NCBI GenBank assembly: GCA_951406725.2
Contig: OX597822.1
Span: forward strand, 20,894,001 to 20,958,000
DNA length: 64,000 nt
Source: Octopus vulgaris
Lineage: Eukaryota
Reading direction: 5' to 3'
Positions 2,292-57,925 of this stretch are shown here, piece after piece (positions within the stretch are counted from its first letter, which is position 1; each line of letters opens with the position of its first letter). The position numbers and the translations under genes were made by a program. Under the pieces are notes generated by a model. It was not told the origin of the DNA and searched no databases. It saw only the letters and a list, made by a program, of their open reading frames with translations.

Positions 2292-2337
<46 letters not shown>

Positions 2338-2536
2338 CATAGTAAATAGGGTAATAAAAATAAATTATTATTACCAGTGACCTAGTACAAAAGACGAATA
2401 AGTCATTAGACTATACGTTATTCATATATAAATACATTAAAAGGCTTCCAAATAAAGAAGCAAGTGCTAGATACACAAAGAGGGGATAAATTCATGAAAT
2501 GGAATGAAAATCAAAAACATTTACCATCTCAGCTAA

Positions 2537-2612
2537 TCCTGTACTGCAGTTTCGTCTTTTTTTTTAGCAAATGAATAGAATTCATCTGCCAAGGCCAAAC
2601 TCGTCAGCAGGA
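2537..2612 (-). ncRNA. Type I hammerhead ribozyme (minus-strand copy)
   Basis: Reverse complement of the 3031-3108 motif: TCCTG-CTGACGA-G...C-GAAAC-TGCA-GTA-CAGGA. Confidence 0.88.
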
Positions 2613-3030
2613 AGCCTTTATAATCCAAGCTGTACATATCGCTAGAAGCACGCGCAAATCTAACGATCTGTATACTCCAACTTTTCAGACCAGTGCGCAG
2701 ACGCAAACCATACCCGGCGAACAGAGAGGATGCCTGTAAAAATTTACGAGCAAATTTATCGAGCAATATTTAAAACATAGTAAATAGGGTAATAAAAATA
2801 AATTATTATTATTACCAGTGACCTAGCACAAAAGACGAATTAGTCATTAGACTATACGTTATTCATATATAAATACATTAAAAGGCTTCCAAATAAAGAA
2901 GCAATACCGGCATCCTCTCTGTTCGCCGGGTATGGTTTGCGTCTGCACACTGGTCTGAAAAGTTAAAGTATACAGATCATTAGAATTGCACGTGCTTCTA
3001 GCGATATGTACAGCTTGGATTATAAAGGCT

Positions 3031-3108
3031 TCCTGCTGACGAGTTTGGCCTTGGCAGATGAATTCTATTCATTTGCTAAAAAAAAAAAGACGAAACTGCA
3101 GTACAGGA
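3031..3108 (+). ncRNA. Type I hammerhead ribozyme (plus-strand copy)
   Basis: Stem I TCCTG/CAGGA, core CTGACGA at 3036-3042, stem II GTTT/AGAC with hairpin TTGGCAGATGAAT-TCT-ATTCATTTGCTAA, GAAAC at 3092-3096, palindromic stem III ACTGCAGT, GUA cleavage after 3103. Confidence 0.9.
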
Positions 3109-3208
3109 TTAGCTGAGATGGTAAACGTTTTTGATTTTCATTCCATTTCATGAATTTATCCCCACTTTGTGTATCTAGCACTTGCTTCTTTATTTGGAAG
3201 CCTTTTAA

Positions 3209-4602
<1,394 letters not shown>

Positions 4603-4893
4603 AAAAATAATAGTTATCGCCATACTAATATGGCATTCTTATAAAAATAAGAATAAGCTGTCCGCTTATTAGCTCCATGAGGCCATCGCCTTAAGTTAGC
4701 TATTTGATACACAAACTGTATCCATATAACCTTCGAACAAGGGAGGTCAGTCGCTCCACACTACTTGACCGGCAGCTACAGACGCGTTTCGGGGTATTGC
4801 CCCTTTTCAATGCAGCGTAGCCAGCCAGTAGGTGTCGCTTCCGACAATCTCTGTTCGATGGTTTTATTTACCTAGTTTCGGTGGAATACATCC
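4603..4893 (-). mobile_element. About 290-bp non-coding HHR-bearing element between (TA)n tracts
   Basis: Island of higher GC with CpGs, bounded by TA repeats, containing the HHR at 4775-4816. Confidence 0.65.
4775..4816 (-). ncRNA. Minimal type I hammerhead ribozyme with U3-A8 core variant
   Basis: Minus strand: GCTGCA-TTGAAAA-GGGG-CAATA-CCCC-GAAAC-GC-GTC-TGTAGC. Six-bp stem I, four-bp stem II, palindromic stem III ACGCGT, GUC cleavage triplet. Confidence 0.8.
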
Positions 4894-6240
4894 ATATATA
4901 TGTGTGTATATATATATATGTATATATATGTATGTATGCATATATATATGTGTGTATGCATATATATATTTGTATGTATATATGTATATGTATGCATATA
5001 TTTATGACTGTCCATGACCTCATCTCGTCCTCTCGTCTCCCCCACACTGCATCCAACCTAATTGTGCAAACCCCACGCACCCCCACCATTTACTTCCTCC
5101 CCAAAATCCACAAACCCAACAACCTTGGCCGCCCCATCGGCTATGTTGAGGCCCAAATATTCTCTAATTTCACTGGTCCCACTCCTGAACTATACGGTCG
5201 TTACATTGACGACATTATCGGTGTCACCTCACTCTCCTGTGAACATCTAGATTCCTTCCTCTCTTTCGTTCAATCCTTTTCCATCCAGCCCTCCACTTCA
5301 CCTCCACTATCTCCAACACCTCTGTCTCCTTCCTCGACATTTCGGTCAGCATTCATCACTCCACTCTTACCACCTCCATTCACTACAAACACACAGACTC
5401 ACACTCATACCTAAACTTCTCTTCCTCCCACCCAAAACACACCAAGCTTTCCATCCCCTATTCCCAATTCCTCCGTCTACGTAGGCTCTGTAGTGACGAC
5501 CATGACTTTGAGACTCAGTCTCAACGCATGGCTCACCACTTCATCCTACGTGGATACCCCCTCACTACTATCCACACCGCCCTTGCCAGAGCACGTTCCG
5601 TAGACCGTGCTTCTGCTCTCTCCCCCCCGAACCCGCCCTGTAGTCTCCCGCCTCCCTTTTCTCCTCACTTACCACCCCACGACCCTACCTCTCCAACGCA
5701 CCATTCTTCGAGCTTTCTGGCATCTCCAGTCCGACCCGTCCACTTCACACCTCTTCCCTAACCGACTCCGCCCCTCCTTCAAACGAGCCCATAACCTACG
5801 AGACCTTTTGGTCCACAGCTCCTTCCCTGACCCTACCTCCCAACCTGGCCCGTTCCCCTGCTCCCACCCACGTTGCCGCACTTGCCCTTACCTCTCCAAC
5901 ACCACCCTCCTCACTGGCACCCATCATCGACCCTATCGCATCATCAACTTCTTCACCTGCACCTCCAGCAATATCATCTATTGCATCTCTTGCTCTCTCT
6001 GCCATTCCTTGTACATCGGACAAACGGGACGCCGCTTCGCTGACCAGTTCGCGGAACACCTCCGTGACATCCGCCTTGCCAACGACACACTGGTCTCACG
6101 CCATTTCCGCTCCACCAGTCACTCCTTGCAACACCTGTCTGTGTTCGGTTTGTCCTTGCACAGAGGCCATCCGGATTCCTGTTTGCGCCGTGAACAGAAA
6201 TTAATCTTCTCTCTTCGCTCTTTTACGCCATTTGGTCTCG

Positions 6241-14404: not shown

Positions 14405-15892
14405 ATCTAGATGTTTTCATATGTATTGATCTGTACTTGCATATGCAGATGAATGGTCAATGAAGGCCTCCAAAAGAATAACATGAATTTCAAATGATTG
14501 AGGAATTTCTTGCACAGAAAATTGTTAATAGCTTCCAACTAGAGATTTCATGTATAGACATGAAAATGAATAGGGAACAGTAATAAGCTGTGATGTTCAA
14601 GCCTTTCTTATGTTTATTAACAACGAAAGTGAGGTAAAACACTTCAACAGTGTTCCCAGTTTTCAATTTAATGTTAGTTGGCAAATTCCAATGTTAACAA
14701 AAGTTTTTCATTTCAATCTCAATTTTCAAGAAGAAAGAGAGAGGTCAATATGTATGCATGCATTTAAGTATGTATGTCTATATGTATGTATGTCTGTATG
14801 TATGTATGTATGTATGTATGTATGTATGTATGTATGTATGCTTGCATGTATGCATACAGGCATGTATATATGTATGCATGTACATATGTACATACTTACA
14901 TATGTATGTAAGTGTGTATGTATGTATGTGTGTGTGTGTGCTTGTGTGTATGTATGCCTGTATTTGTGTGTGTGTGTGTATATATCAAGTATTAATGCAC
15001 TTGTTTTTACAGCCATGTTCTTTTACTTTGCTTCTGGGAATGGAATGATTTTTACACATTTGTACATTTGCATACTCTAGTCACAGCTCATCAATTCCCG
15101 TTGTTTAATGACTCATCTATTCTTTTTGCAAACAATGACAAAGAAAGTTATATGCCTCATTCAACAGTGCAACATAATATCAGGCATGGTAACATATGAA
15201 GACATAAACACTTGGTTAATAGTTCAGCAATTTAAATGCACAGCCATCATGTATTGCCTTACTCTGTAAGTGTGTGTCTCTGTATAAGTGTGTGTGTGTG
15301 TATATATGTATATATAGAATATAAAGAAAGTCGGGAAGTATGAGATGAATATATTTATTTCATCAGTTGATATCTATAGGATAAATATATTTATCTAATA
15401 CCTCCTGACTTTCTTTATATTCTATATACTCCTCAGGAAATAGTTACCACTGATTGGATTTACTGGATAGGACTCTACATTACACTCTTATGTATTACTT
15501 TACTATGTGATTTGTAGTATAGTCCACTAAAGGATTACCATCAGATGAAATAAATCCATATATTGTGCATTATATATATATATATATATATATAAATATA
15601 TATATATTTGATAAAAGTTTAACTCAGGTCCATGCAACTTAGTTTCATAAACTCATAGAATTAACCTCAGAAGAGTAAAGGGATATGAGACAAATTCAAC
15701 ATGATTTCCAGATGTTAGACCTCTATTGACCAAGTCAGGTCACGTGGTGCTATTGGTATGAAAATGACATGAATTATTTTCTTTATTTTTAGTCTCTCTC
15801 TCTCTCATACACTCATACACACACAAACACACACACACATATCAATAAGTGGACAAATGAAAGAAAGAAGCACATTTGGTAGGAGCCAAATA

Positions 15893-16105
15893 TACTGGTT
15901 TCAAATTTTAGCACAAGGCCAGCAATATTGGGGGAGAAGCTAAGTTGATTACATTGATCCCAGTACTTGACTGATACTTATTTTATCGATCCTAAAAGGA
16001 TGAAATGCAAAATTGACCTTAGTAAAACTTGAATGTAAAATGCAAAGATAGATGAAATGCCACTATGTATTTCACCCAGCATGCTAACAATTCTGCCAGC
16101 TTTCC
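15893..16105 (-). mobile_element. SINE of the GGTCAACTTTGCCTTTCATCC (Nin-domain-like) family, decayed
   Basis: Similar to the copies at 39410-39826 and 52224-52432. Confidence 0.7.
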
Positions 16106-16587: not shown

Positions 16588-17636
16588 ATATAAGGAAAAT
16601 GAGACAAAGTAGAAAATGTTAAAATAATTTTGTCATGAAGTACATTTCAGTACTAGTTTCCATCTTTTAAACTTTTTAACTAAGAGTAAAATAAGAAAAC
16701 AATTGAAATGAAGAAAAAATGTGAATATTTTGTAGATATTTCCATAGTCTTTAAATAGGTAAATATTTCCATAGTCTTCAGATAGTCTATCCCTCTCTCT
16801 ATTTCTTTGTGAATGCCTTGTAGGTGGGTAGTAGTAAATCTGAAGGAATAGTTTGGGTACAGAGAATTGATGGTTTAAGCAGGAGCAGCTGAGGGAAGAG
16901 AAGGAAAAAAAAAAGAAAAAAGAAGGAGGAGAAGAAGATGAAGGAGGAAGAGAAGTAGGGGTAGAGTAAGAAGAGGGAGAAGGAGAAATAAAAAAAGAAA
17001 AATACAAAAGTGCTGTGACAATAAATATTGTGGAATATTCTTTAATGGTCAAATGACCTAAAAGTAACCTCTATAAATTCAGGGCAAAGCAACCTATACT
17101 CAGCACATTAGCAAGGAAGCATATTTTATCACAAAATATAAACCTATTTTGAATGCCACCCCCACCACCACTACAGATGAAACTACTACAAGAGTTTAGA
17201 ACAATTCCAACCACTACTGCTATGACCACAACAGGTCACTTTTAGGTCATTTGACAATTAAAGAAGATTCCCTGAACAATTTACTGTGTCAAAGCACTCC
17301 TGTATTTTTCCTTTCTTTCTCCTTCTCCTTCATCTCCCTTGGTTGCTCCTACTTAAACCATCAATTCTCTGTATCCAAACTATTCCTTCAGATTTACTAC
17401 TACCCACCTACAAGGCATTCACAAAGGAATAGAGGGAGAGAGAGAGACTATCTGAAGACTCTGGATATATTTATCTATTTAAAGACTATGAAAATATCTA
17501 CAAAACATTTCACTTACTTTTTTTTCTCCAATTTAATTGTTTTTCTTATTTTACGCTTAGTTGAAAAAAGTCTAAAAGACAGAAACCGGTACAAAAATTA
17601 TTTTAGCATTTTCTATCTTGTCTTATTTTCCTTATA
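16588..17636. repeat. Long diverged inverted repeat (arms about 16588-17070 and 17233-17636)
   Basis: Arms are reverse complements; opposite-strand ORFs share LNHQFSV.KLFLQIYYYPPTRHSQRNR. Confidence 0.92.
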
Positions 17637-31434: not shown

Positions 31435-31876
31435 CCATACCAAACAAAATGCTTTTGGGGATTTTTTCCAGCTGTTTGCTTTCTGAGTTCAAATTCCACC
31501 GGGGTCAACTTTGCCTTTCATCTTTTTGGAGTTGATAAAATTAGTGTCACATGAGAACTATAGTTAATGTCACCAACTAACACCCTCGCCAAGAATTTCA
31601 GTCTTTGTGCCTATGTTAGAATGGTGTTTTTCTATTATTATTACTATTATTATTATTATTCTGCGGCAAGCTGGCAGAAATGTTAGCACACTGGGCGAAA
31701 TGAGTTCAAATTCCGCCGAGGTCAACTTTACCTTTCATCCTTTTGGGGTCGATAAATTAAGTACCAGTTATGCACTGGGGGCGATGTAATCGACTTAATC
31801 CGTTTGTCTGTCCTTGTTTGTCCCTTCTGTGTTTAGCCCCTTGTGGGTAGTAAAGAAATAATAATAATAATAATAA

Positions 31877-31935
<59 letters not shown>

Positions 31936-32812
31936 GGCAGTGAGCTGGCAGAATTGTAAGCATTAGTGGCATTTCCATCATCTTTACATTCTGAATACAA
32001 AGTCCACCAAGGTTGACTTTGACTTTCATCCTATCAGGATCACTAAAATAAGTACCAGTTGAGTATTGGGGTTGATGTAATCCACTTAACCTCTCCCTCT
32101 GTAAAGTCTGTCCTTGTGCCAAAATTTGAAGCCATTATTATTATTATTATTATTATCATTATTATTACATGCTAATTTAATTAGCAGAGATATTATCTTG
32201 AGGTTTGATAGCAACAAGTCTCCATCAATCTCAAGAATCTTATGATTCTTGCAGAATACCACATTGTATTTCCCTGCAGGTCAACAATGTGAATCTCAAT
32301 TTCAATATCTTTCATTTCTTAGGTAGTAGTTTGGGTGTTGTGCCAAGTGCACCAATAACCACATGGAAAATAAAATTGAATTTATTATTATTCTTGTTGT
32401 TGTTGTTAAATTATTATGGTAATTGGCAGAATTGTTTAGTGTAAGTCAAAATGGTTTGCTGTATTTAGTTAATAGTGCATTACTTTCTGAGTTTAAATTC
32501 TTCTACAGTCAACTTTGCCTTTCACCCTTTTGGAGTTGGTTGAATAAAATGCTCGTAATGTAAGGGCTTGGTGTGATCATCTATTGCTCTCACTTCGAAA
32601 ACTGTTGACCTTGTACCTAAATTCAAAGCAAGAATTGTTAGTGTGTCAGAAAGATATCTTTCAGCCCTTATTTTGAATTGGATCAGTTTAAATCCTGCTA
32701 AGGTCAACTTCGCTTCAGTGCTTTCAAGGTTGATATAATATAATACCAGTCCAGTATTCAGGTTGATATTATTGATTCCTCTCAAAAATTACTGGCCTTG
32801 TGCTTAAATCAT
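31435..32812 (+). mobile_element. Cluster of about five same-orientation Nin-domain-like SINE copies, mostly separated by (TTA)n
   Basis: Repeated GAGTTCAAATTC..GGTCAACTTTGCCTTTCATCC..GATAAA..AGTACCAG blocks near 31490, 31700, 32000, 32490 and 32690. Confidence 0.8.
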
Positions 32813-39409: not shown

Positions 39410-39826
39410 TATTTCTTTATTGCCCACAAGGGGATAAACATAGAGGGGACAGACAAGGACAGACAAAGGGATTAAGTCGATTAGACTGACCCCAGTGCGT
39501 AACTGGTACTTAATTTATCGACCCCAAAAGGATGGAAGGCCGAGTCGACCTCGGCGGAATTTGAACTCAGAACGTAACGGCAGACGAAATACCTATTTCT
39601 TTATTACCCACAAGGGGCTACACACAGAGGAGACAAAGAAGGACAGACAGACGGATTAAGTTGATTATATCAACCCCAGTGCGTAACTGGTACTTAATTA
39701 ATCGATCCCAAAAGGATGAAAGGCAAAGTTGACCTCAGCAGAATTTGAACTCAGAATGTAATGGCAGACAAAATACCGCTATGCATTTCGCCCAGCGTGC
39801 TAACGTTTCTGCCAGCTCACTGCCTT
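39410..39826 (-). mobile_element. Nin-domain-like SINE with tandem duplication of its 3' portion
   Basis: Head AAGGCAGTGAGCTGGCAGAAACGTTAGC; 39410-39592 is repeated at 39593-39777. Confidence 0.85.
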
Positions 39827-40705: not shown

Positions 40706-40711
40706 ATAATT

Positions 40712-41305
40712 ATTAATTGAGGGAATAAAATCCAAACTTACAAGGAAAAAAATTCAATTTAGAAATACTAAATCAAATTTCACACAATTTTATATATATA
40801 TATATATATATAAAAAAAATTAGAAAAAAAAACACCTTTTATCTAGAAAATTACATATAATAGAAATAATAAAAACGTATATAATAGGTATATAATATTA
40901 TATACCTATTATATGCGTTTTTATTATTATTTTTGCAATTTACTTATTCTTTACATTTTATTGTTATTTTAATTTTAACTTTTCTATTATATGTAATTTT
41001 CTAGAAGGTGTAATTTAATTGTTCATTTTGAATTGATAAAAGGTGGTTTTTCTCTAATTTTACATATATATATATACATAATATATGTTTTTATTATTAT
41101 TTGTTTTTTTTCTAATTTTACATATATATATACATAATACATGTTTTTATTATTATTTTTGCAATTTACTTATTCTTTACATTTTATTGTTATTTTAATT
41201 TTAACTTTTCTATTATATGTAATTTTCTAGAAGGTGTAATTTAATTGTTCATTTTGAATTGATAAAAGGTGTTTTTTTTCTAATTTTACATATATATATA
41301 CATAA
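40712..41305. mobile_element. AT-rich PLE-end-like repeat with internal tandem and inverted segments
   Basis: Start GGGAATAAAATCCAAACTTACA.GGAAAAA matches 47843-47870; about 40915-41075 is repeated at about 41140-41300. Confidence 0.6.
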
Positions 41306-41332
41306 TATATATATGTCTCTCTATCTATCCGT

Positions 41333-41530: not shown

Positions 41531-41931
41531 CATGCATACATATATACATATAGACACAGAAAGAAATAAATTATGCTGAAAATGCAGTAAGTATATATGA
41601 AGATTTTTTTTTTGCTAAAAATATATAAATACACTTTACTGGTTTCACACTTGTATGATTTTAAAAATTGTACATTATGATGTAGTGGAGCTGTATTGCA
41701 AACTGCATTAATACAACTTGTGACACAGCTCGATGTTTCTCATAATGTACACTTTTGAAAATTATTCAAGTGTGAAACCAATTAAGTGTACATATATTTT
41801 TATAAATTTACTTAAAATCTCCATATACACTCGGAGCATTTTCAACTTCATTTTTTTTATTCTTTACTTCTACTTGCACGGATTAATAATGATTTATACA
41901 TACATACATACATACATACATACATTCATGC

Positions 41932-44017: not shown

Positions 44018-44117
44018 NNNNNNNNNNNNNNNNNNNNNNNNNNNNNNNNNNNNNNNNNNNNNNNNNNNNNNNNNNNNNNNNNNNNNNNNNNNNNNNNNNN
44101 NNNNNNNNNNNNNNNNN
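44018..44117. other. Assembly gap (100 N)
   Basis: Run of n characters. Confidence 1.
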
Positions 44118-46660
44118 CTTTCATGGTGGAAATCCTCTTGGTGAAATGTCTTTGGATTGTCTCAAGCTCTGTGGTTAGTTTGACACTATGCAGTGACCAC
44201 AGTTGGGAGCAGTAGTCCAGTCGGCTTAGGACAAATGTCCTCCATAGTGTCAACATGGTCTCGCAGTCTCTTGTCCGGAATGTCCTCAGGATCCAGCCAG
44301 TGAGTCGTCTGCACATTGTCGCCACCTTCGCGATGTGTGAAGAAAAAGATGCATCGTCACTCATGTCTATCCCCAGGTCCCGTATTGATTTCGATACTGG
44401 GATTTCGATCCCTCCTGGACCAGTATAGTTGTGTTGTAATGTATATGTGTTTACAGCTTGATATTGTAAGGCTTGAAATTTACCAGCATTAAATTGCATG
44501 TTGTTGTCTTCAGCCCATTTGTATATGGCATCCAGATCTTGTTGTAAAAGGTCAGCATCAGCTGGGTTTTTGATTGCCTGTGCTACCTTTGTGTCATCAG
44601 CATAGCTAGTGAGGGATGTTGTTTGTGCTACCAAGGGCATGTCAGAGAGTGCCACCAAAAACAGCAAGGGTCCCAAGACTGTGCCCTGTGGCACCCCGCT
44701 TGCTATTGGTGTCTTTCCCGAGAGGGCTCCATTGGCTGCAACCATCTGGCTTCTGTCCTTCAGGAAGTCATGTATCCACTCACCTACTTTTCCTGTTATG
44801 CCGAGTCTGAGTAATTTGTGACATATCACTCCGTGGTCGACTTTGTCAAAGGCCTTCGCAAAGTCGAGATATACCACATCCACCTGTGAGCGATCCAGTA
44901 GTTGTTTCAGTACCCAGTCGTAGTGTTGTAACAGCTGTGTAAGGCAGCTTCTTCCTGGGTGAAAGCCATGCTGTGTGTCAGTGAGACGGTTAGTTTCTTC
45001 GAGGAACGTGATCAGTTTTTTTCTGATGATTCGTTCCATGACCTTACTTATGTGTGACGTCAGGGAGACTGGCCTGTAGTTTTTGGCCTCTGCTCTACTC
45101 CCTCCTTTGTGGATAGGGCATATGGTGCCTTCTTTTAGCGCCCTGGGCAGTTTACCGTTAGCCAAGGAACCACTGAAGAGCTTCTTCAGTGGTCCCGCTA
45201 GGAGCATGCCTGCATGATTTTAGGAGGGCTGCTGGGAATCCATCTGGTCCAGCAGCTGAGTTTATTCTCATTTCTTCTATGGCAGATATTACATCCCTCT
45301 CTGTTATGTCTATGTGGTCGATGGTTGTTGTTTGGTTTTGGAGTGTTGTGGCATCAAAGAAAACTTCTGGGTTTGTGATTTGCATGTGCCCCAGAGGGGA
45401 TGTGAACACACTTTTATACTGTTCCTTTAGTATTTCACTTATCCCTTGGGGGTCCTCAGTTAGAGAGCCCTTTTTATCAAAGAGTGGGCCAATCTTGCAG
45501 TGTACCGAGGTGGTTTCTTTCGCAAATTTAAAGAAGGCTTTAGGGTTTGTTTTAATATTCTCTATGGCCCTGGCTTCTCTCTCTGCCCTCTCCTTCTCAT
45601 AGGAAAGTTTGAGTGCAGTTTCCGTTTCAAAAAGTTTCAGGTGGAGTCCCTCATTGTTTCTCTGCCGTGCATTCAGTTGCCTCGAGAGCTTAGCTCTTCG
45701 CCTCATAAGTATTTTCCTGTCTCTGGGAATAGCGTTCCTATGCCCGCTGGCTTTTTTCTCCGGGACAAACTTATGGCATATGTTCTGTATTGTTGTCATG
45801 AAATGTTGGAAATGTGTGTTGGTGTCTTGTGTGGTGATGAAGTCACTCCAGTCATGTTTTCGGATCTCTTCGTTGATCTTCTTCCAGTTTGCCTTATGGA
45901 AGTTTAGACTGGATAGGCCTGTGGTATTTTCTAATGGCTGCGTCTCAACTAACTCTCTCATACCATATATCATTACCTCTACTAAGTTGTGATCTGAGAG
46001 AATTGTTGGTGTTACCATTATGTTGTGGATGAGCATCGGGTTGCTTGTGAAACAGAGGTCCAAGACATTCTCACCTCTTGTTGGCCAAAGCACTGCTTGC
46101 TCCATGAAAAACTTGCGTGTGAGAGCCAGCAAGGACTCTGTCTGTCTCTGTTCAAGTGATGTCATTCCAGGGAGGAGATGGCCATCTGGCCATTTGACTT
46201 TCGGAAGGTTAAAATCTCCCAGCAGTAGAATGGTGTTACCCTGGTCCAGTTTGTCCAGGACTTCTTCTATTCTTCTGAGGCTATCTTCAAACACTCCTTC
46301 ATGACTAGGGGTGTCTGGTGGCCGATATGTGACACATATTACTATTTTCGGTTGTTTCATGTGTACTATCAGTGTGTCACAGACTGAGTTTGAGTGTGTC
46401 AACAGTACTATGGGTGTGACATCTTCACGGACGTACAGGGCAACCCCACCATGAGTTCTTTCCTTCCTGTCCGACCGAAAAACAGTATACTTCGGTATGT
46501 GTATTTCTGCATCTGCTATACTGCTTGACAGGTGCGTTTCAGTCAGCGCTATGCATATTGCATGGTTGCTTGTGCTCAAGTCCCTAAGGTAAGGAATTTT
46601 ACCCATATTAGTGGGTTTCACCAGACCTCTGACATTCAGCAGAAGCACTGGTGAGACACC
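44118..46660 (-). mobile_element. CR1-clade LINE ORF2 (APE endonuclease plus RT), one frameshift near 45200, 3' end lost in the gap
   Basis: APE motifs NVRGL, LTETHL, GGVALYV, YRPP, GDFNLP, PTRGENVLDL, SDHN; RT motifs NYRPVSLTS, DFAKAFDKVDH, GVPQGTVLGPLLF, YADDTK, LDYCSQLWS. Confidence 0.93.
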
Positions 46661-46685
46661 CGGGATTCAGACACTTAACACCGGG

Positions 46686-47835
<1,150 letters not shown>

Positions 47836-47836
<1 letters not shown>

Positions 47837-48611
47837 ATATTAGGGAATAAATCCAAACTTACAGGGAAAAATTAGATTTAGGATTAAATCCAATTTTATA
47901 GCATAAATATATAATATTATATTATATTAAATTAGAGATAAAACCACTATTAGGCAAATCAAACAGTGAAAAACATAAGCCAATACATAAAATTAATTAA
48001 AAAATATAAAAGTTAAAAATAAAAAATTATATAAATAATTTAAACTTATAAATTTTATATATATATACAAATATATATATATATGTATTTATATTTTTAT
48101 ATTTACATATTATTTTATTTATTAATTAATTAATTAATTTTTTAAAATATATTTTTAAATATCAAAAGTATTAAAAGTTTAATAAATGATAAAGAGTAAA
48201 ACACTACGATCGTTTCATGGCTGTACCAATTCGAATAACAATAATTTAAATTCAATTAATAATTCGAGTTATGGTTACAGTCAATCTTCAGGTTAATTGA
48301 GATATTTTTAAAATAATCAGAAATATTTAAACAATATTTTTAAGATATAAATAATATAATAATTTTACTTATAATAAACTCTATTATCAAACTAGAAACT
48401 TAAAACTTAACAATTATGATTATATCAAAATCGATTATAATGTTAAATATTAATTTTAATTTATAAGGTAAGAAACCCACCAATAATCTGATATCGGTAA
48501 TAGTCTATATCTAATAACATAAATATTTTTTTAAAAATGACTATTATATATAAATTATCAATGAAAATATATAAATGTATATAAATATTATAATTAAGAT
48601 CTTAAATAATC
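47836..48611 (-). mobile_element. PLE pLTR-like AT-rich arm (left arm of an approximately 690-bp inverted repeat, plus an extra terminal segment)
   Basis: 47918-48611 is a near-exact reverse complement of 51004-51699 and contains an HHR motif. Confidence 0.8.
48197..48298 (-). ncRNA. Hammerhead-like motif with long stem II (minus copy)
   Basis: Reverse complement of 51317-51417. Confidence 0.65.
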
Positions 48612-50617
48612 GGTTAATATAGGGCGTGACAAATATCAGAAAATCAAAAAAAAATGTGTGTAATAGGTGTAAAACAACTTCCTATGAACGAATATGAAAA
48701 AAAAATTCGCGCACGCGAAAGGGTGGGTGGGGGAGAGGCCTCGGAAAATTCACATCGAGAAGTTCCGAAAGCGTCTGAGGGGCTGACCCGGGCACCAAAA
48801 CAAAAAAAAAATAGTGTAATATGTGTAAAACAACTTGCTCTAAACGAATATGAAAAAATGCGCTCTCGCGAAAGAGGGGTGGGGGAGAGGCCTCGGAAAA
48901 TTTATATCGGGAATTTCCGAAAGCGTCTTAACCGGGCACAAAAACAAAAACAAAAACAGCGTAATAGGTGTAAAAAAAATTGCTCTAAACGAATATGACA
49001 AAAAAAATGCGCGCTCGCAAAAGTGGGGTGGGGGAGAGGCTTCAGAAATTCACACATGAATCATAAACTCCGTATTTTTGTACATATTTCGCAAAAAAAA
49101 AAATAAAGAGAAGAAATTCTGGAAAAAGTGAAGAAATGTTGGATCTCCGCCATGTGAATCAAAATACGTGTCAGAAACATCTTGAAATACTACAGAAATT
49201 ATGTTACGAAAATGATAATGTATACATACCTCTTTGAGTGGTCCATCGACAGTGTTGATAAAGAAATGAGATGGGTTGCGTTTGGAGGAAAAAATTATCG
49301 CGGGCCAGGATAAAGACTTGCTGCTGCCAATAAGAATACGTGTATTCTCTTGGCAGCAGGTCTGATGCTGTCCAAAAAAAGGAACTTCGCCATGTATTGT
49401 TTTAGGTAACAGGCACGAATGCCTGGGCGAACAACCGATTTCTTCACTGACCCCCACAATCTCTCTATCGTCTGTGTGTGCACCGACGCGTTTGTCGGAT
49501 CCACAAAGTTTTCGCTGTGGTTGACGCGGAAGTGAGTATACCCGATATTTCCAAGAGAGCTATATGCACCCCAAGAATCACTATATACTACCGACCCTTG
49601 GCGTATATATCGGGTAATTAAGGGGATCAGTGTGGCGGCATCTCGCCTTTCCTCTTCACCACACTCAGATGAAAGAGGTATCAAAAATTTCTTTTTGGCT
49701 ACCCGCTCGATTCCACCGAAGAGCCAAATAGTTTTTGTGAGTCTTCCTCGATTGTATTTCCTCCTTACAATAACAGATTCGTCGATCTCCACTTCAACTC
49801 CTGGTCCACCGATTTGGTCCTGGTAATTCTCTACCCAATGTTGACAAACCTCGGAGCAGAAGGATCGCCAATCAATTGAGGTCGAATTCGAAATTTTCAA
49901 ATTTTCAACGACTAATGCGTGCGACCAACAGTCTGTGAGGAAGTAATTCACAAATAACAAGATCTGACATGGTGGTAGCTGGCTCCGCTCCAAAAATGTG
50001 TTGCTGTATAGGGATATTAAATATCCACATTGCGTTGGCCTTTGCCTTCGACGGCGAACAGTCCTTCTACATGGGAAGATGTTTGTATTTCCTCGCAATG
50101 TACACATGGTAAATTGCATCTAGGGCAGTCAACTGTGCGGGGAATGATATTATGTTTTCGAAAGAAATCTAATCCCTCAATGTCATTAGTAAATCGGCGA
50201 ATCCCATCCTGTAATGTTAATTCACATGAATTGCAAAGTGCCATTCTCTATCATAAAACTTAACGCTTGTGTATCTACGAGTGAAATGAATATATGCACT
50301 TGTTCTGTACCAAGGAGCGGGAAATCCTCCACACCTGAAGAATGGATGAGTAAACACTGGTCAATGAAAGGTCAGTCTTTTGTCTAAGAACAGTTGTTTA
50401 CAAGACGAGGACAGTTGTCCTTAAGAACAACTGTCCTTAAGGACAGTTGTCCTTAAGGACAACTTGAATAGAACTTGGTACCAACTATCGTCTTGTAAAC
50501 AACTGTTCTTAGACAAAAGACTTTTTTTTTTCATATTCGTTCATAGGAAGTTGTTTTACACCTATTACACACATTTTATTTTTGATTTTCTGATAGACGT
50601 AACGCCCTATATTAACC
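48612..50617 (-). mobile_element. Merlin-superfamily (IS1595-like) DNA transposon
   Basis: About 95-bp imperfect TIRs starting GGTTAATATAGGGCG and ending CGCCCTATATTAACC; encodes a DDE transposase. Confidence 0.93.
49295..50244 (-). CDS. Merlin/ISXO2-type DDE transposase with N-terminal Cys motifs, one frameshift near 50085
   Basis: VEIDES, RKYNRGR, WLFGGIER, VYSDSWGAY, HFRVNHSENFVDP, HTQTIERLW; the N-terminus with CPRC is in ORF 50017-50244. Confidence 0.88.
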
Positions 50618-51699
50618 GGCTTTTGTATATACACGTATTAATAGTATTAATTGTAATTTTAAATTTCTTATAATTAAAATTAGATAAACTTTGATAAACT
50701 TAGATGTTTCGACTAAAGATTGGTCCAGGCTATGTCTAACTTAATAGCGTAACTTAGTTATTGTCTTTTTAAATTGATATTCACTAGTTATTCCCATTGA
50801 TAATTATATTTATAGTATTTATAGTATTTATTCGATACTATATAACTACGAATTGATTATTTCTATAAGTATTTTAAATAAGATTTCCGAAAGTTCGTTT
50901 AAGTTTGTTTGTTTGTATTTTTGAAATTAGCTATTTCATCTTTAAATATGAAAAATTAATTTATTAGGTCTTTATTATATGTGCATATATATTTATTTAT
51001 AGAGATTATTTTAGATCTTAATTATAATATTTATATACATTTATATATTTTCATTGATAATTTATATATAATAGTCATTTTTAAAAAAATATTTATGTTA
51101 TTAGATATAGACTATTACCGATATCAGATTATTGGTGGGTTTCTTACCTTATAAATTAAAATTAATATTTAACATTATAATCGATTTTGATATAATCATA
51201 ATTGTTAAGTTTTAAGTTTCTAGTTTGATAATAGAGTTTATTATAAGTAAAATTATTATATTATTTATATCTTAAAAATATTGTTTAAATATTTCTGATT
51301 ATTTTAAAAATATCTCAATTAACCTGAAGATTGACTGTAACCATAACTCGAATTATTAATTGAATTTAAATTATTGTTATTCGAATTGGTACAGCCATGA
51401 AACGATCGTAGTGTTTTACTCTTTATCTTTTATTAAACTTTTAATACTTTTGATATTTAAAAATATATTTAAAAAAAAATTAATTAATTAATTAATAAAT
51501 AAAATAATATGTAAATATAAAAATATAAATACATATATATATATATTTGTATATATATATAAAATTTATAAGTTTAAATTATTTATATAATTTTTTATTT
51601 TTAACTTTTATATTTTTTAATTAATTTTATGTATTGGCTTATGTTTTTCACTGTTTGATTTGCCTAATAGTGGTTTTATCTCTAATTTAATATAATATA
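50618..51699 (+). mobile_element. PLE pLTR-like AT-rich segment (right arm of the inverted repeat from 51004)
   Basis: Reverse complement of the left arm; ends in (TA)n. Confidence 0.75.
51317..51417 (+). ncRNA. Hammerhead-like motif with long stem II (plus copy)
   Basis: CTGAAGA at 51324-51330, stem II TGACTGT..ACCA/TGGT.ACAGCCA with inner TCGAAT/ATTCGA, GAAAC at 51399-51403, palindromic stem III ACGATCGT, GUA site; stem I is weak. Confidence 0.65.
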
Positions 51700-51730
51700 T
51701 ATATATATAACTATATATATATATATATAT

Positions 51731-51764
<34 letters not shown>

Positions 51765-52223
51765 ACTTTACATTGAGGAGTGCAACATACAATTTTCTGA
51801 AAGTCAAAAGGCTTCATGGTCCCACCAGACAAAATGAAAAAGATGTTGCCCCAGAGGATGACAAGGGAGATATAGTGGAACAACCACCCTGACTCTGACT
51901 TACAGGGCTCACAGATGTGGGCAACCACCTCCATCTCCTTTAGCAGTGATTGTTTCTTTGTTGAAATGAGTGAAATAATTATTTATTGATTTGTAACATC
52001 TGTACATTTAAAGAGAGGTGTTGCAGTTGATTAAATTGATCTCTAGTGTTTAACTAGTACTTTAGTTAATTGGTCTTGGACAAATAAAAAGCAAAGTTGA
52101 CCTCAGCAGAATTTGAACATAGAATGTATCTTTCTAAATACTGTTAGGCATTTTGTCTGGCACTATCAGGAATTTGCCAAATTTATCATTAATTGTTAAT
52201 TCCACCATATCTATACTACTTCA

Positions 52224-52432
52224 AGGAGGTGATCTAGCAGAATCGTTAGCATGCTGGGCAAAATGCTTAGCGGTATTTTGCTGCTATGTTCTGAGGTAAA
52301 ATTCTACCGAGGTTGACTTTGCCTTTCGACCGTTCAGGATTGATAAATTGAGTACCAGTGAAATATTGGGGTCGATGTCATCGACTAGCCCCCTCCCCAA
52401 AAATGTCAGGCCTTGTGCCTTCAGTAGAAAGG
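52224..52432 (+). mobile_element. Nin-domain-like SINE
   Basis: AAGGAGGTGATCTAGCAGAATCGTTAGC..GAGGTTGACTTTGCCTTTC..GATAAATTGAGTACCAG; an opposite-orientation copy lies at about 52015-52185. Confidence 0.8.
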
Positions 52433-53598: not shown

Positions 53599-56105
53599 AC
53601 TATAGCTATATTCTTTTTTGCTACTTTTTGCTTAGTAGAGAAATAGAATGTCTGCAAACTTTTAAATATGTTAAAAGACCGTTTTGGTATCATTACCATG
53701 ATGTAGCTTAAATTTATTACATACTGTTACTGTATACAAAATATCAGATTAAGTTTACTTCACAAACACATGTATAAACATTTCCACCCATTAGTCTTAC
53801 AGTTACTACTGATTATTTAGAACGCCGTTTAAACTTTATATTCTAATGGGGAAAAATGGCTTCATTAAAAGATTTTTTTGTAGTTCAGCTTTGTTTATCC
53901 ATGTAGTTTGCATAATAACACCCAACCATTGTTTATTTGAACTTGAGCTGTGAGTTCTTATTTCTCTTTTATTGAAACCAAATGCTTGAATATATAGATT
54001 TCTTTTTATAACTGTTGTAAGTAACTCACTACTACATCAGTCTACAAATTGAATTATTGCAAGAAGTATTTCTACAGAATATAAAAACCAATCTCAACAT
54101 TAAAATCATTATCTGCAAATAAATTTCTTTGAGGATTTGGATAGATGATAGAGTGTAGAATCTTGTTGGAAAATATTTATTTCGTTATTCTTTTTCTCTT
54201 TTTGTCTTGAATACTATATTTTATTCCAAATTTTTCATGTATATTTAATGCTTTTTATATGGAATATTAAATCCGCCCTAACTCCTACAGTATTCATGCT
54301 TTATTATCTTGAGTTTAGTGTTGGAATTCATTCTTTGATAAATATTATTTATTTAAAATTTACCCACTTGTGATTGCATGCACTTATCAAAAAATGTGAC
54401 AAAATCTGAAAATAGAAGTGTTAGCTACAAAGAGACGCTTATCATTAAATAGTGTTTTTCTAATAAATATATGTTCTTATATATCTAAGTAAATGCAGAG
54501 TCTTCCACAAATCATTTCACAGATAAAGGATATTTGTATATATGAATTTAAGCATTTAAATATTTTATATGAGAGAATTTATTTAAAATGCTTTCTACTT
54601 TCTCTTGCAATTCAATATGATCCTTTCTCTATTACAGTTAACAAAGTGGATGGTCCTTTCAATCATTCAAAAACTATCTTTTACCAAGAATTCTACTCCT
54701 CCTCACCCACTTAATTATTATGTAGCAGGCCTTTCCATCAAAATCATTACAGGTGTGACTTCATACTGAAAAGTCACAGTTGTTCTAGTTAACACTGGCA
54801 TATTAACCCAATAAATAATGGTTCACCAGATTTTATTTTGCTAATGAGGCCTAACAAGACTGAAACATTTTCCAAATTTTTACCATATTGCCAAAACAAA
54901 ATCCCTCCCTATTGCATTCTGTTTCTTTTTATTTTTATTCTGTCTTATATTAATTTTGACTAACTTGAAATCACAACAGGTGTGATTTGTATTGATTAAA
55001 ACATTCTCTCTCAATACCATATGTACATTAACACCCATTTTTTAAATTTATATTCTGCTGCACTATTTTTCTAGCAAAAACATTCAGTTTTCACTGGCTT
55101 AGTTCAAGAAGCTGCAACTATGTGATATATAGGGAAGGATACAAAACATACTGTCATAAATAAGCTGGGCATTGTACTCCTGGCATGTTTAAGTTTCTAT
55201 TTATTGCTGGTGTTAAGATATCCCATGAGACAGATTAGTTTCTGGAGAGAAAGTAGATGGTATCAGAACTATTATTTTCTAAGGTAAGGCAACAGTGGCA
55301 CTCCTATAGTTCCTTTCACAGAAACAATTAATTAATCAATTAATTAATCAATGAATCAGCCATAAAAATAGACATAGTTCCTCATAACAATGTAACAAAT
55401 CACAAGGTAATGCAATATAATGCAAACGATAGAGCTTTAATCAGCAGCTGTTGTATGTAGTACAATAACTACTGGATCATGCAGTAGAAGTGGGCAGTAC
55501 ATAAACCCTGAAGGGAGAGATAATAAACTCAAAGGGCTTGGCAACAGAGCGTAACACAATAAACACAAACATATAGCAGATCATTAACGGTAATTAAAAT
55601 ATTTATTGAAATAAGTGGTGGAAATAATATTTACTTCTGATTTAGTTTAGGCAGATCTACAATAGATAAGAAGCAAATGGAGAAGCTGTACGCAAACATA
55701 AGATAGCTGACCATGCTTATATTTGTATACATGTATGTCTGCGTGTTTGTGTGCATTTGTTGAATAGAAATCAGGCAGTGTACATTTATATCATTTATAT
55801 GAACTAAATGTGAACCTATTGTAGTTCCAGCCTAGGGTTGGTGAGAATCGAAATATCAGATAGGATATTTTGGTTGTGTTCAACAGAGAAACCAACACTA
55901 TGAAGTACTCAGCATTTTTAGAGGCTGGTCCAAATCTCACACTACTTTGAAGAGTATATTGTTGGTATACTCTAGGGTGTCCAACAAGTCATAAATTCCC
56001 TTGGTGTATTATAATCAATTGAATAATAACAAATGATGGATAATTGTCAGCTCATTACAGCTGTAATGAACTGACAATAATCCATTGTATGCTACTATTC
56101 ATTTG

Positions 56106-57039: not shown

Positions 57040-57925
57040 GATCCCACACAATGAAGGACTTCTTGCACTCAATCACTTCCTAGACTTTCGACACCTCCAC
57101 ACTTCTTCATCTGGCTGAACTTGTTCTCTCCCTCAACTGCTTCTTGTTCATGGGGGATTTTTACTAACAGGCCTTAGCAGTGAGAATTTTTACCAACAGG
57201 TCTCGGGCCATGGGAATGTAAATGGGCCTCAACTATATGAACCTATTCATTGACTACATTGAGGCCCAAATATTCTCACAATTCACTGGTCCCACTCCCG
57301 GACTATATGGTCATTATATTGATGACTGTATCGGTGCGACCTCACTCTCCCACAAACAACTAAACTCCTTCCTCTCTTTTGTCCAATCTTGCCCTTGAAT
57401 TCTCCTGCACTATCTCTAACACTTCTGTTGCATTTCTCAACATTTCAGCCAGCATACACCACTCTGCTCTCACTATCTCCATCCACTATAAACACACTGA
57501 CTCACATTCAAACCTTAACTTTTCCTCCTCCCACTCTACCCACATCAAGCTCTTCATTCCCTACTCCCATTTCCTCCATCTGCACTGGTTCTGCAGTGAC
57601 AACCATGACTTTGAGACTCAGTCTCAACTCATGGCTCACCACTTCATCTTTCGTGAATATTCCCTTACCACTATCCACACAGACCATATTCCATGGACTG
57701 TGCCTCTGCTCTCTCTCCCCACACCCACCCTGCCATTGCCTGTCTCCTGTTTCCCCTCACCTACTACCCCTCCAATGCACCATTCTCCAAGCCTTCCAGC
57801 GACTCCAGTCCGACCCCTCCACCTTGCACATCTTCCCCAACCAACCCCATCCCTTCAAACAAGCCTACACCCTGCGTAACCTCCTGGTCCACAGTTTCTT
57901 CCCTCACCCCACCTGCCAGCCTGGC
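57040..57925 (+). pseudogene. Older Neptune-type PLE RT fragment related to 5005-7116
   Basis: IPHNEGLLALNHFL, HYKHTDSHSNL, IPYSHFL, LQSDPST; collinear with 5140-5850 and also carries RT sequence that is deleted in that copy. Confidence 0.88.

Follow-up and report, generated by a model that had tools for sequence, protein, structure and literature searches.

A 64,000-nucleotide stretch of the Octopus vulgaris genome (assembly GCA_951406725.2, contig OX597822.1, positions 20,894,001 to 20,958,000; hereafter the window, numbered from its first letter) contains a Merlin DNA transposon lying between the two inverted arms of a likely Penelope-like element (PLE). The locus is a nested structure of two known types of element: a pair of near-identical arms with a tail on one side only and, between them, a Merlin with intact terminal inverted repeats (TIRs) and a single frameshift in its transposase, around which there is no target-site duplication (TSD). 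The lack of a TSD at an exact join of arm and transposon is the sole anomaly of the locus, and known rearrangements can explain it. We tentatively favor, at a little under even confidence, the view that the Merlin jumped into a pre-existing inverted PLE insertion, one flank of which was later deleted exactly up to the TIR along with one copy of the TSD. On this view the locus adds another nested and rearranged transposon insertion to a repeat-rich genome. It comprises the following features:

46691-47835, no strand: left flank, a long (TA)n microsatellite (by TRF, period 2, 569 copies, 46691-47833)
47836-47917, minus: 3' tail of the left PLE copy, a stretch with no counterpart on the right
47918-48611, minus: left arm (14.7% GC), an inverted copy, truncated at its 5' end, of an AT-rich and non-coding PLE-like element, its sense pointing outward
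48197-48299, minus: atypical type I hammerhead-like motif of the left arm, with C3 at 48291 (core search)
48612-48705, plus: left Merlin TIR, starting 5'-GG (TIR comparison)
48636-49060, plus: three subterminal repeats of about 150 bp each at the left end of the Merlin (82.5% direct repeats)
49295-50244, minus: Merlin (IS1595/IS1016-like) DDE transposase with one frameshift (PF12762, tblastn)
50374-50522, no strand: nested palindrome of 149 bp adjoining the inner edge of the right TIR (fold of -92 kcal/mol)
50523-50617, minus: right Merlin TIR, its GG start at 50617
50618-51003, plus: unmirrored 386 bp, the presumed 5' continuation of the right PLE copy (strand bias, Markov models)
51004-51699, plus: right arm, the tail-less 3' part of the longer PLE copy, mirroring the left arm
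51316-51418, plus: atypical hammerhead-like motif of the right arm, with C3 at 51324, G12 at 51399 and a putative GUA site at 51408-51410 (core search)
51690-51762, no strand: right flank, a short (TA)n (51690-51732) followed by (GA)n

The inverted arms and the enclosed Merlin

The left arm (694 nt) mirrors the right arm (696 nt) at 99.3% identity, the differences between them amounting to three mismatches (at 48144, 48187 and 48603) and one 2-nt indel within a T run. A preliminary description of this locus had already placed the arms at these coordinates and noted that 50618-51003 has no mirror, and self-comparison bears out both points; the mirroring stops at the arms, neither flank being mirrored further out. 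The mismatch at 48603 lies 9 nt from the left Merlin TIR, just beyond the position that an 8-bp TSD would have. The same description had the arms bounded by (TA)n. On the right this is correct, albeit for a short run; on the left the arm and the microsatellite are separated by a tail of which 71 nt are strictly unmirrored (47836-47906), or 82 nt if counted up to the clean start of the arm (to 47917). An adjacent inverted, 5'-truncated copy with a tail at one end is often or typically carried by PLEs, and microsatellites are favored as targets by the endonuclease-containing (EN+) PLE clades Naiad and Neptune (PMC8557442, PMC3846280). Both the inverted truncated copy with its one-sided tail and the (TA)n target are present here.

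The 386 bp between the Merlin and the right arm share the T>A and G>C bias of the sense strand of the arms (P=0.005 for T>A), and Markov models (order 0-3) built from the arm sequence prefer their plus strand over their minus strand by 19-62 bits. None of 447 other windows along the stretch scored as arm-like under these models, a count that omits windows with N, with at least five TA units or within 46600-51800 and is mainly a comparison with host DNA. We infer that the outer structure is a head-to-head PLE insertion in (TA)n, in which the right copy (50618-51699) is the longer one and the left copy (47836-48611) is shorter and tailed. Six-frame translation of the arms and of 50618-51003 yielded no long open reading frame (ORF), and an ORF with PLE reverse transcriptase (RT) and GIY-YIG domains was not found in these segments; hence, we file the outer element only as a likely non-autonomous PLE derivative of a young family, an assignment made on architecture and motif.

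The Merlin spans 48612-50617 (2,006 bp) and has a GC content of 40.8%, as against 15-21% in its flanks. Its TIRs are about 95 bp long and about 95% alike, fall within the 24-462 bp expected of GG-start Merlin TIRs and are intact to the GG at both ends. The minus-strand transposase ORF matches PF12762 (E 3.8e-15; 56.6 bits against a cut-off of 27) with the catalytic D, D and E positions of the DDE_Tnp_IS1595 domain kept. The N-terminus lies in a second frame, and tblastn with full-length relatives places a single frameshift near 50090-50110. This copy accordingly lacks the intact ORF of an autonomous element, although the frameshift could be an error of the assembly or consensus. Relatives were recovered as 252 of 888 candidate proteins at E<=1e-20, the top three being 66-69% identical; among the named relatives the highest identity is with an Octopus bimaculoides fragment (69% over 51% of the query). 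The palindrome at 50374-50522, with 34-bp outer arms and 16-bp palindromic units inside, is either native to the subterminal region or else a small foldback that was inserted there. Matches to microRNAs in Rfam at 50373-50523 were set aside, being far under the gathering score and a reflection of this palindrome. A 122-aa ORF running across the subterminal repeats has no Pfam match, and no second Merlin copy was found in the window.

The mirror of the arms ends at 48611 and the left TIR opens with GG at 48612 without any gap, so that the left arm does halt exactly at the TIR, as had been described. The reported lack of an 8-9-bp TSD was likewise confirmed: at the GG boundary the flanks match at 2/8 positions as 8-mers and at 1/9 as 9-mers, and none of the boundary offsets from -4 to +4 gave a perfect duplication of either length (the best being 6/8 at -4 and 6/9 at +3). 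An 8/9 near-match at 48587/50650, the best within about 30 nt of the junctions, was rejected as a TSD, being AT-rich and not adjoining the TIRs. Since Merlins are defined by their GG-start TIRs and 8-9-bp TSDs (PMC8101967), the absence is a real anomaly for this copy, and we read it as a property of this insertion. The flanks do resemble the Merlin termini: AATC on the left matches the last four bases of the Merlin, AACC, at 3/4 positions, and GGCT on the right matches the first four, GGTT, at 3/4. The overall 6/8 resemblance has P ~0.002 at that offset, with independent flanks drawn from PLE sequence; it was noticed post hoc, after 18 pairs of offset and length, and this P is before correction for offsets. 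We treat the resemblance as a lead only, which mildly favors capture by end-joining or a family that inserts without TSDs. The 8-mer across the right junction (50612-50619) recurs exactly at 48929-48936 in the second subterminal repeat, probably by chance. The combined PLE-Merlin unit occurs once in the window, and of two scans for stray copies in prokaryotic genome contigs the first gave 49 pattern matches, none of them confirmed, and the second gave no matches.

Merlin-free elements and the hammerhead-like motif

An arm layout like that of the focal locus is found without any DNA transposon at 2337-3208, where (TA)n flanks, arms of 96% identity and a tail at one end only (about 95-100 nt) surround a 166-bp unmirrored spacer of the element's own sequence. 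This is a non-autonomous PLE- or retrozyme-like insertion built from a 438-bp unit as a partial tandem plus an inverted copy, with a blunt arm-arm join at 2904/2905. Given this Merlin-free example and the published norm for PLEs, the inverted repeat at the focal locus needs no special cause. The element at 40706-41310 is an older Merlin-free relative of the focal family, which has the same tail and arm start along with an internal 144-bp duplication: the focal tail and arm start align to 40715-40913 with a score of 153 (mean of 94.8 and maximum of 126 in 200 shuffles), and the tail is therefore PLE family sequence. By modest margins, the far end of this relative resembles the tail-less end of the focal right arm (103 against a shuffle maximum of 97) and is inverted relative to its own left end (84 against 77). 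Decayed inverted arms of about 78% identity with TA flanks and outward CTGAAGA cores at 16781(-) and 17452(+) are seen at 16593-17632, and an older inverted pair lies at 41558-41863; the latter, like 15317-15422 and 56022-56099, is a self-inverted repeat without a family name.

The preliminary description called the focal arms ribozyme-bearing, each with an outward-pointing hammerhead motif. Outward cores are indeed present at 51324(+) and 48291(-), with CUGANGA, GAAA, NUH and a palindromic helix III, whose 2 bp and palindromic loop are identical to those of a motif at 1875(-). The ribozyme label itself is not sustained: both arms have U·U in place of the conserved G10.1-C11.1 pair, which is G-C in all three control motifs, and helix I is only 2 bp long, as against the 4-6 bp expected and the 4-5 bp of the controls. 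The helix II region is long (68 nt). Searches with Rfam found no hammerhead in the arms even at E<=10 and no match of any family at gathering score over the whole window. Among 3,000 shuffled arms, 32 had the core with helix III and none also satisfied the criteria for stems I and II, which had been fitted to the observed motif. Constraining the fold to the hammerhead costs 8.5 kcal/mol above the minimum free energy in the arm motif, against 6.5 and 8.6 kcal/mol in two controls, energy thus not being discriminating. The motif is non-random but atypical, and going by its sequence we regard it as a PLE-type marker and a putative ribozyme only. The element at 2337-3208 is a better ribozyme candidate than the focal arms, with two canonical outward type I hammerheads (2536-2613 minus and 3030-3109 plus) that match RF00163 at E ~4e-4, under the gathering score. 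The arms do not align with the two control hammerhead elements of the window (scores of 79 and 78, i.e. shuffle level). The third control, a well-formed hammerhead-like motif that Rfam likewise misses, with a 59-nt helix II region, lies beside (TA)n at 1662-1900 on the minus strand (C3 at 1875).

The rest of the window is AT-rich and filled with microsatellites and retroelement debris. Frameshifted remnants of PLE-like ORFs lie at 4821-6204 and 57248-57925. The piece at 5604-6200 resembles GIY-YIG clusters in a protein atlas (cosine 0.96; the family is named on 17-40% of their members) and has no Pfam match at E 0.01; at 57.3-57.9 kb there is a paralogue with 75% identity. A LINE on the minus strand at 44118-46666, with endonuclease (PF14529, PF03372) and RT (PF00078) domains in two frames, abuts the left (TA)n on one side and a 100-N gap (44018-44117) on the other. 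Several copies of a SINE-like repeat family, 70-90% identical to each other, lie at 15896-16101, 31445-32134, 39410-39826 and 52025-52420; we take these to be of octopus type.

Origin of the arrangement

Removal of the Merlin leaves a normal-looking inverted PLE structure; since the Merlin-free remainder is an ordinary PLE insertion, the question reduces to how a Merlin came to be placed at the join without a TSD. The weights that we attach to the answers are judgements rather than computed values. In the account we prefer, PLE reverse transcriptase acting in trans would first have put a longer copy and a shorter, inverted and tailed copy into (TA)n, as the architecture suggests. The Merlin would then have entered the left arm or the central spacer, generating an 8-9-bp TSD. 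Subsequently, one TSD copy and the original arm-arm junction would have been deleted, either by the transposase in an aberrant reaction (sister-chromatid or hybrid-end type) or by an equivalent repair in the unstable center of the palindrome. With a deletion that ends at the TIR, as documented for transposon termini in Ac/Ds (PMC3239180), it follows automatically that the left arm stops exactly there. Further, the Merlin ends are intact to the GG, as joins made by a transposase would be, which supports this account. The preliminary description had proposed insertion at the inversion junction with an adjacent deletion. Insertion and adjacent deletion remain the best fit, but insertion at the junction itself is not required, as the same layout would result wherever in the left arm or spacer the Merlin landed, provided that a one-sided deletion followed. 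Published counts of recent insertions in O. vulgaris (336 Penelope and 11 Merlin) indicate that both have been recently active (PMC13282606), and a young Merlin nested in a PLE is hence plausible.

Several points weigh against insertion followed by deletion. The normal appearance of the Merlin-free remainder means that a deletion is not strictly needed, no remnant of a deleted segment was found, and the 9-mer of the left flank and the 8- or 9-mer of the right flank each occur once in 47800-51800, leaving no orphan TSD copy. The 99.3% identity of the arms implies that two rare events took place in a short time, and the 6/8 resemblance of flanks and TIR ends must be chance. Finally, adjacent deletion is not described for Merlin in the literature consulted.

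The strongest rival, which we consider unlikely though worth retaining, is that end-joining ligated an excised Merlin into the arm-arm join at a break, whether at the time when two 5'-truncated PLE cDNAs were being joined or afterwards, when a break at the palindrome center was repaired. A single event would then account for the intact outer PLE as well as for the absent TSD and the position at the end of the mirror; in keeping with it, the Merlin-free element has its arms bluntly joined at a comparable position (2904/2905), and the flanks match the TIR ends at 6/8 positions. However, end-joining often trims ends, and both Merlin ends are untrimmed. Moreover, the known continuation of the left arm has no microhomology to the TIR start, and young Merlins are scarce in O. 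vulgaris, with the 11 recent insertions noted above (PMC13282606, Table 1). We similarly doubt that the whole 3.9-kb structure came from one PLE integration, in which a DNA transposon was built in between the cDNA arms, being either borne by the template or ligated between separately primed 5' ends. Were this so, the Merlin would be a retroelement-borne DNA transposon, class I machinery would have moved a class II element, and PLE inverted repeats would be closed by end-joining open to foreign DNA and not only by self-priming fold-back.

A composite unit carrying the Merlin as cargo, as the preliminary description had also envisaged, strikes us as improbable. Here a PLE donor holding a Merlin would have been retrotransposed, 5'-truncated exactly at the left TIR, possibly via fold-back of the TIR in the cDNA, and joined to an inverted arm. 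Enclosed host DNA can be mobilized in trans by PLE terminal repeats (PMC3846280), sequence with PLE sense bias lies directly 3' of the Merlin, and the truncation would automatically remove the left TSD. Against this, the truncation would have to fall on one particular base in a length exceeding 3 kb, 50618-51003 is unmirrored although priming by fold-back would have mirrored it, and the window has no second copy or other positive evidence for such a unit. Two variants were rejected: priming by TIR fold-back, on account of the same missing mirror, and a right arm derived from cDNA stalled at the foot of a TIR hairpin, which needs 50618-51003 to be minus-sense PLE sequence when both base bias and the Markov models favor plus.

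Still less probable is an assembly artefact, in the form of a fold-back read or of two loci wrongly joined within a Merlin repeat. A palindrome beside 1.1 kb of (TA)n and a 100-N gap at 44018-44117 invites this suspicion, as does a frameshift that could be a consensus error; but the arms differ at three sites and an indel, the center has 2.4 kb of unmirrored sequence, the tail is on one arm only, and two Merlins, oppositely oriented within the same PLE family, would be required for a misjoin. We give little credence to a Merlin family that inserts without TSDs at sites resembling its abutted ends, by circle-junction or end-targeted integration: the 6/8 resemblance (P ~0.002 before offset correction) points that way, but it is a single post hoc observation that leaves the landing at the exact mirror end unexplained, and TSDs of 8-9 bp are left by the described Merlin families whose ends are clear (PMC8101967). 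Least credible of all are the earlier suggestion that alternative transposition by the Merlin made the inverted duplication and the further idea that the 694-bp arms are the outer TIRs of a larger DNA element, for although the join is exact at the TIR and inverted duplications arise thus in Ac/Ds (PMC3239180), the left arm holds 71-82 nt of family sequence with no counterpart on the right, no flank is mirrored beyond the arms, and inverted, tailed arms exist in the window without a Merlin and are the published norm for PLEs (PMC8557442, PMC3846280).

Comparison with known systems

The locus provides a useful annotated example both of a PLE family that is young and non-coding and of a little-sampled Merlin lineage. 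Formation of PLE head-to-head repeats is listed among unresolved questions (PMC8557442), self-priming having been proposed (PMC3846280), and the locus would be informative on the origin of these repeats if the Merlin came in while the PLE was integrating. A Merlin between inverted PLE repeats was not described in the titles and opening abstracts of the literature searched, outside which lie most subscription journals, Repbase and supplements.

With the EN+ PLEs (Penelope/Poseidon, Neptune and Naiad; PMC8557442, PMC3846280) the outer element shares head-to-head 5'-truncated copies, a tail at one end, a (TA)n target and a hammerhead-like motif in the repeat. It differs from them in having no RT/GIY-YIG ORF, and hence no clade assignment, in its tail of 71-82 nt as against the 30-40 nt reported, and in the whole DNA transposon at its join. 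Like the arm motif, the metazoan PLE type I hammerheads (PMC4209133) combine a core of CUGANGA and GAAA with a helix III that is short and palindromic and with a short helix I, which in Penelope of D. virilis is described as having 2 bp, and they form opposite-strand pairs, reported at 100-700 bp apart; they are said there to cleave poorly, and as dimers. Unlike them, the arm motif lacks the conserved G10.1-C11.1 pair and has a 68-nt helix II region. As background, a preprint derives animal retrozymes from PLEs (10.64898/2026.07.22.740005).

The enclosed transposon resembles the Merlin superfamily (IS1016/IS1595-like; PMC8101967) in its GG-start TIRs, single DDE_Tnp_IS1595 transposase and subterminal tandem repeats, but has no 8-9-bp TSD, is frameshifted and has its nearest database proteins at only 66-69% identity. 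Deletions ending at a transposon terminus are documented for sister-chromatid transposition of Ac/Ds (PMC3239180), and like the focal join they have a breakpoint exactly at the transposon end with non-matching flanks; they were shown in hAT elements with two nearby Ds copies, Merlin not being among them in the text consulted. In the precedent for PLE cargo capture, that of Adineta vaga, a non-ribosomal peptide synthetase gene lies between PLE pseudo-long terminal repeats (pLTRs; PMC3846280), and cargo between pLTRs also figures in a review (PMC6431247). Foreign DNA is enclosed by PLE repeats in both cases, but the A. vaga cargo lies between direct pLTRs with an outer TSD, whereas the Merlin has inverted copies on its two sides, its own TIRs mark its exact limits and nothing points to its co-mobilization with the PLE.

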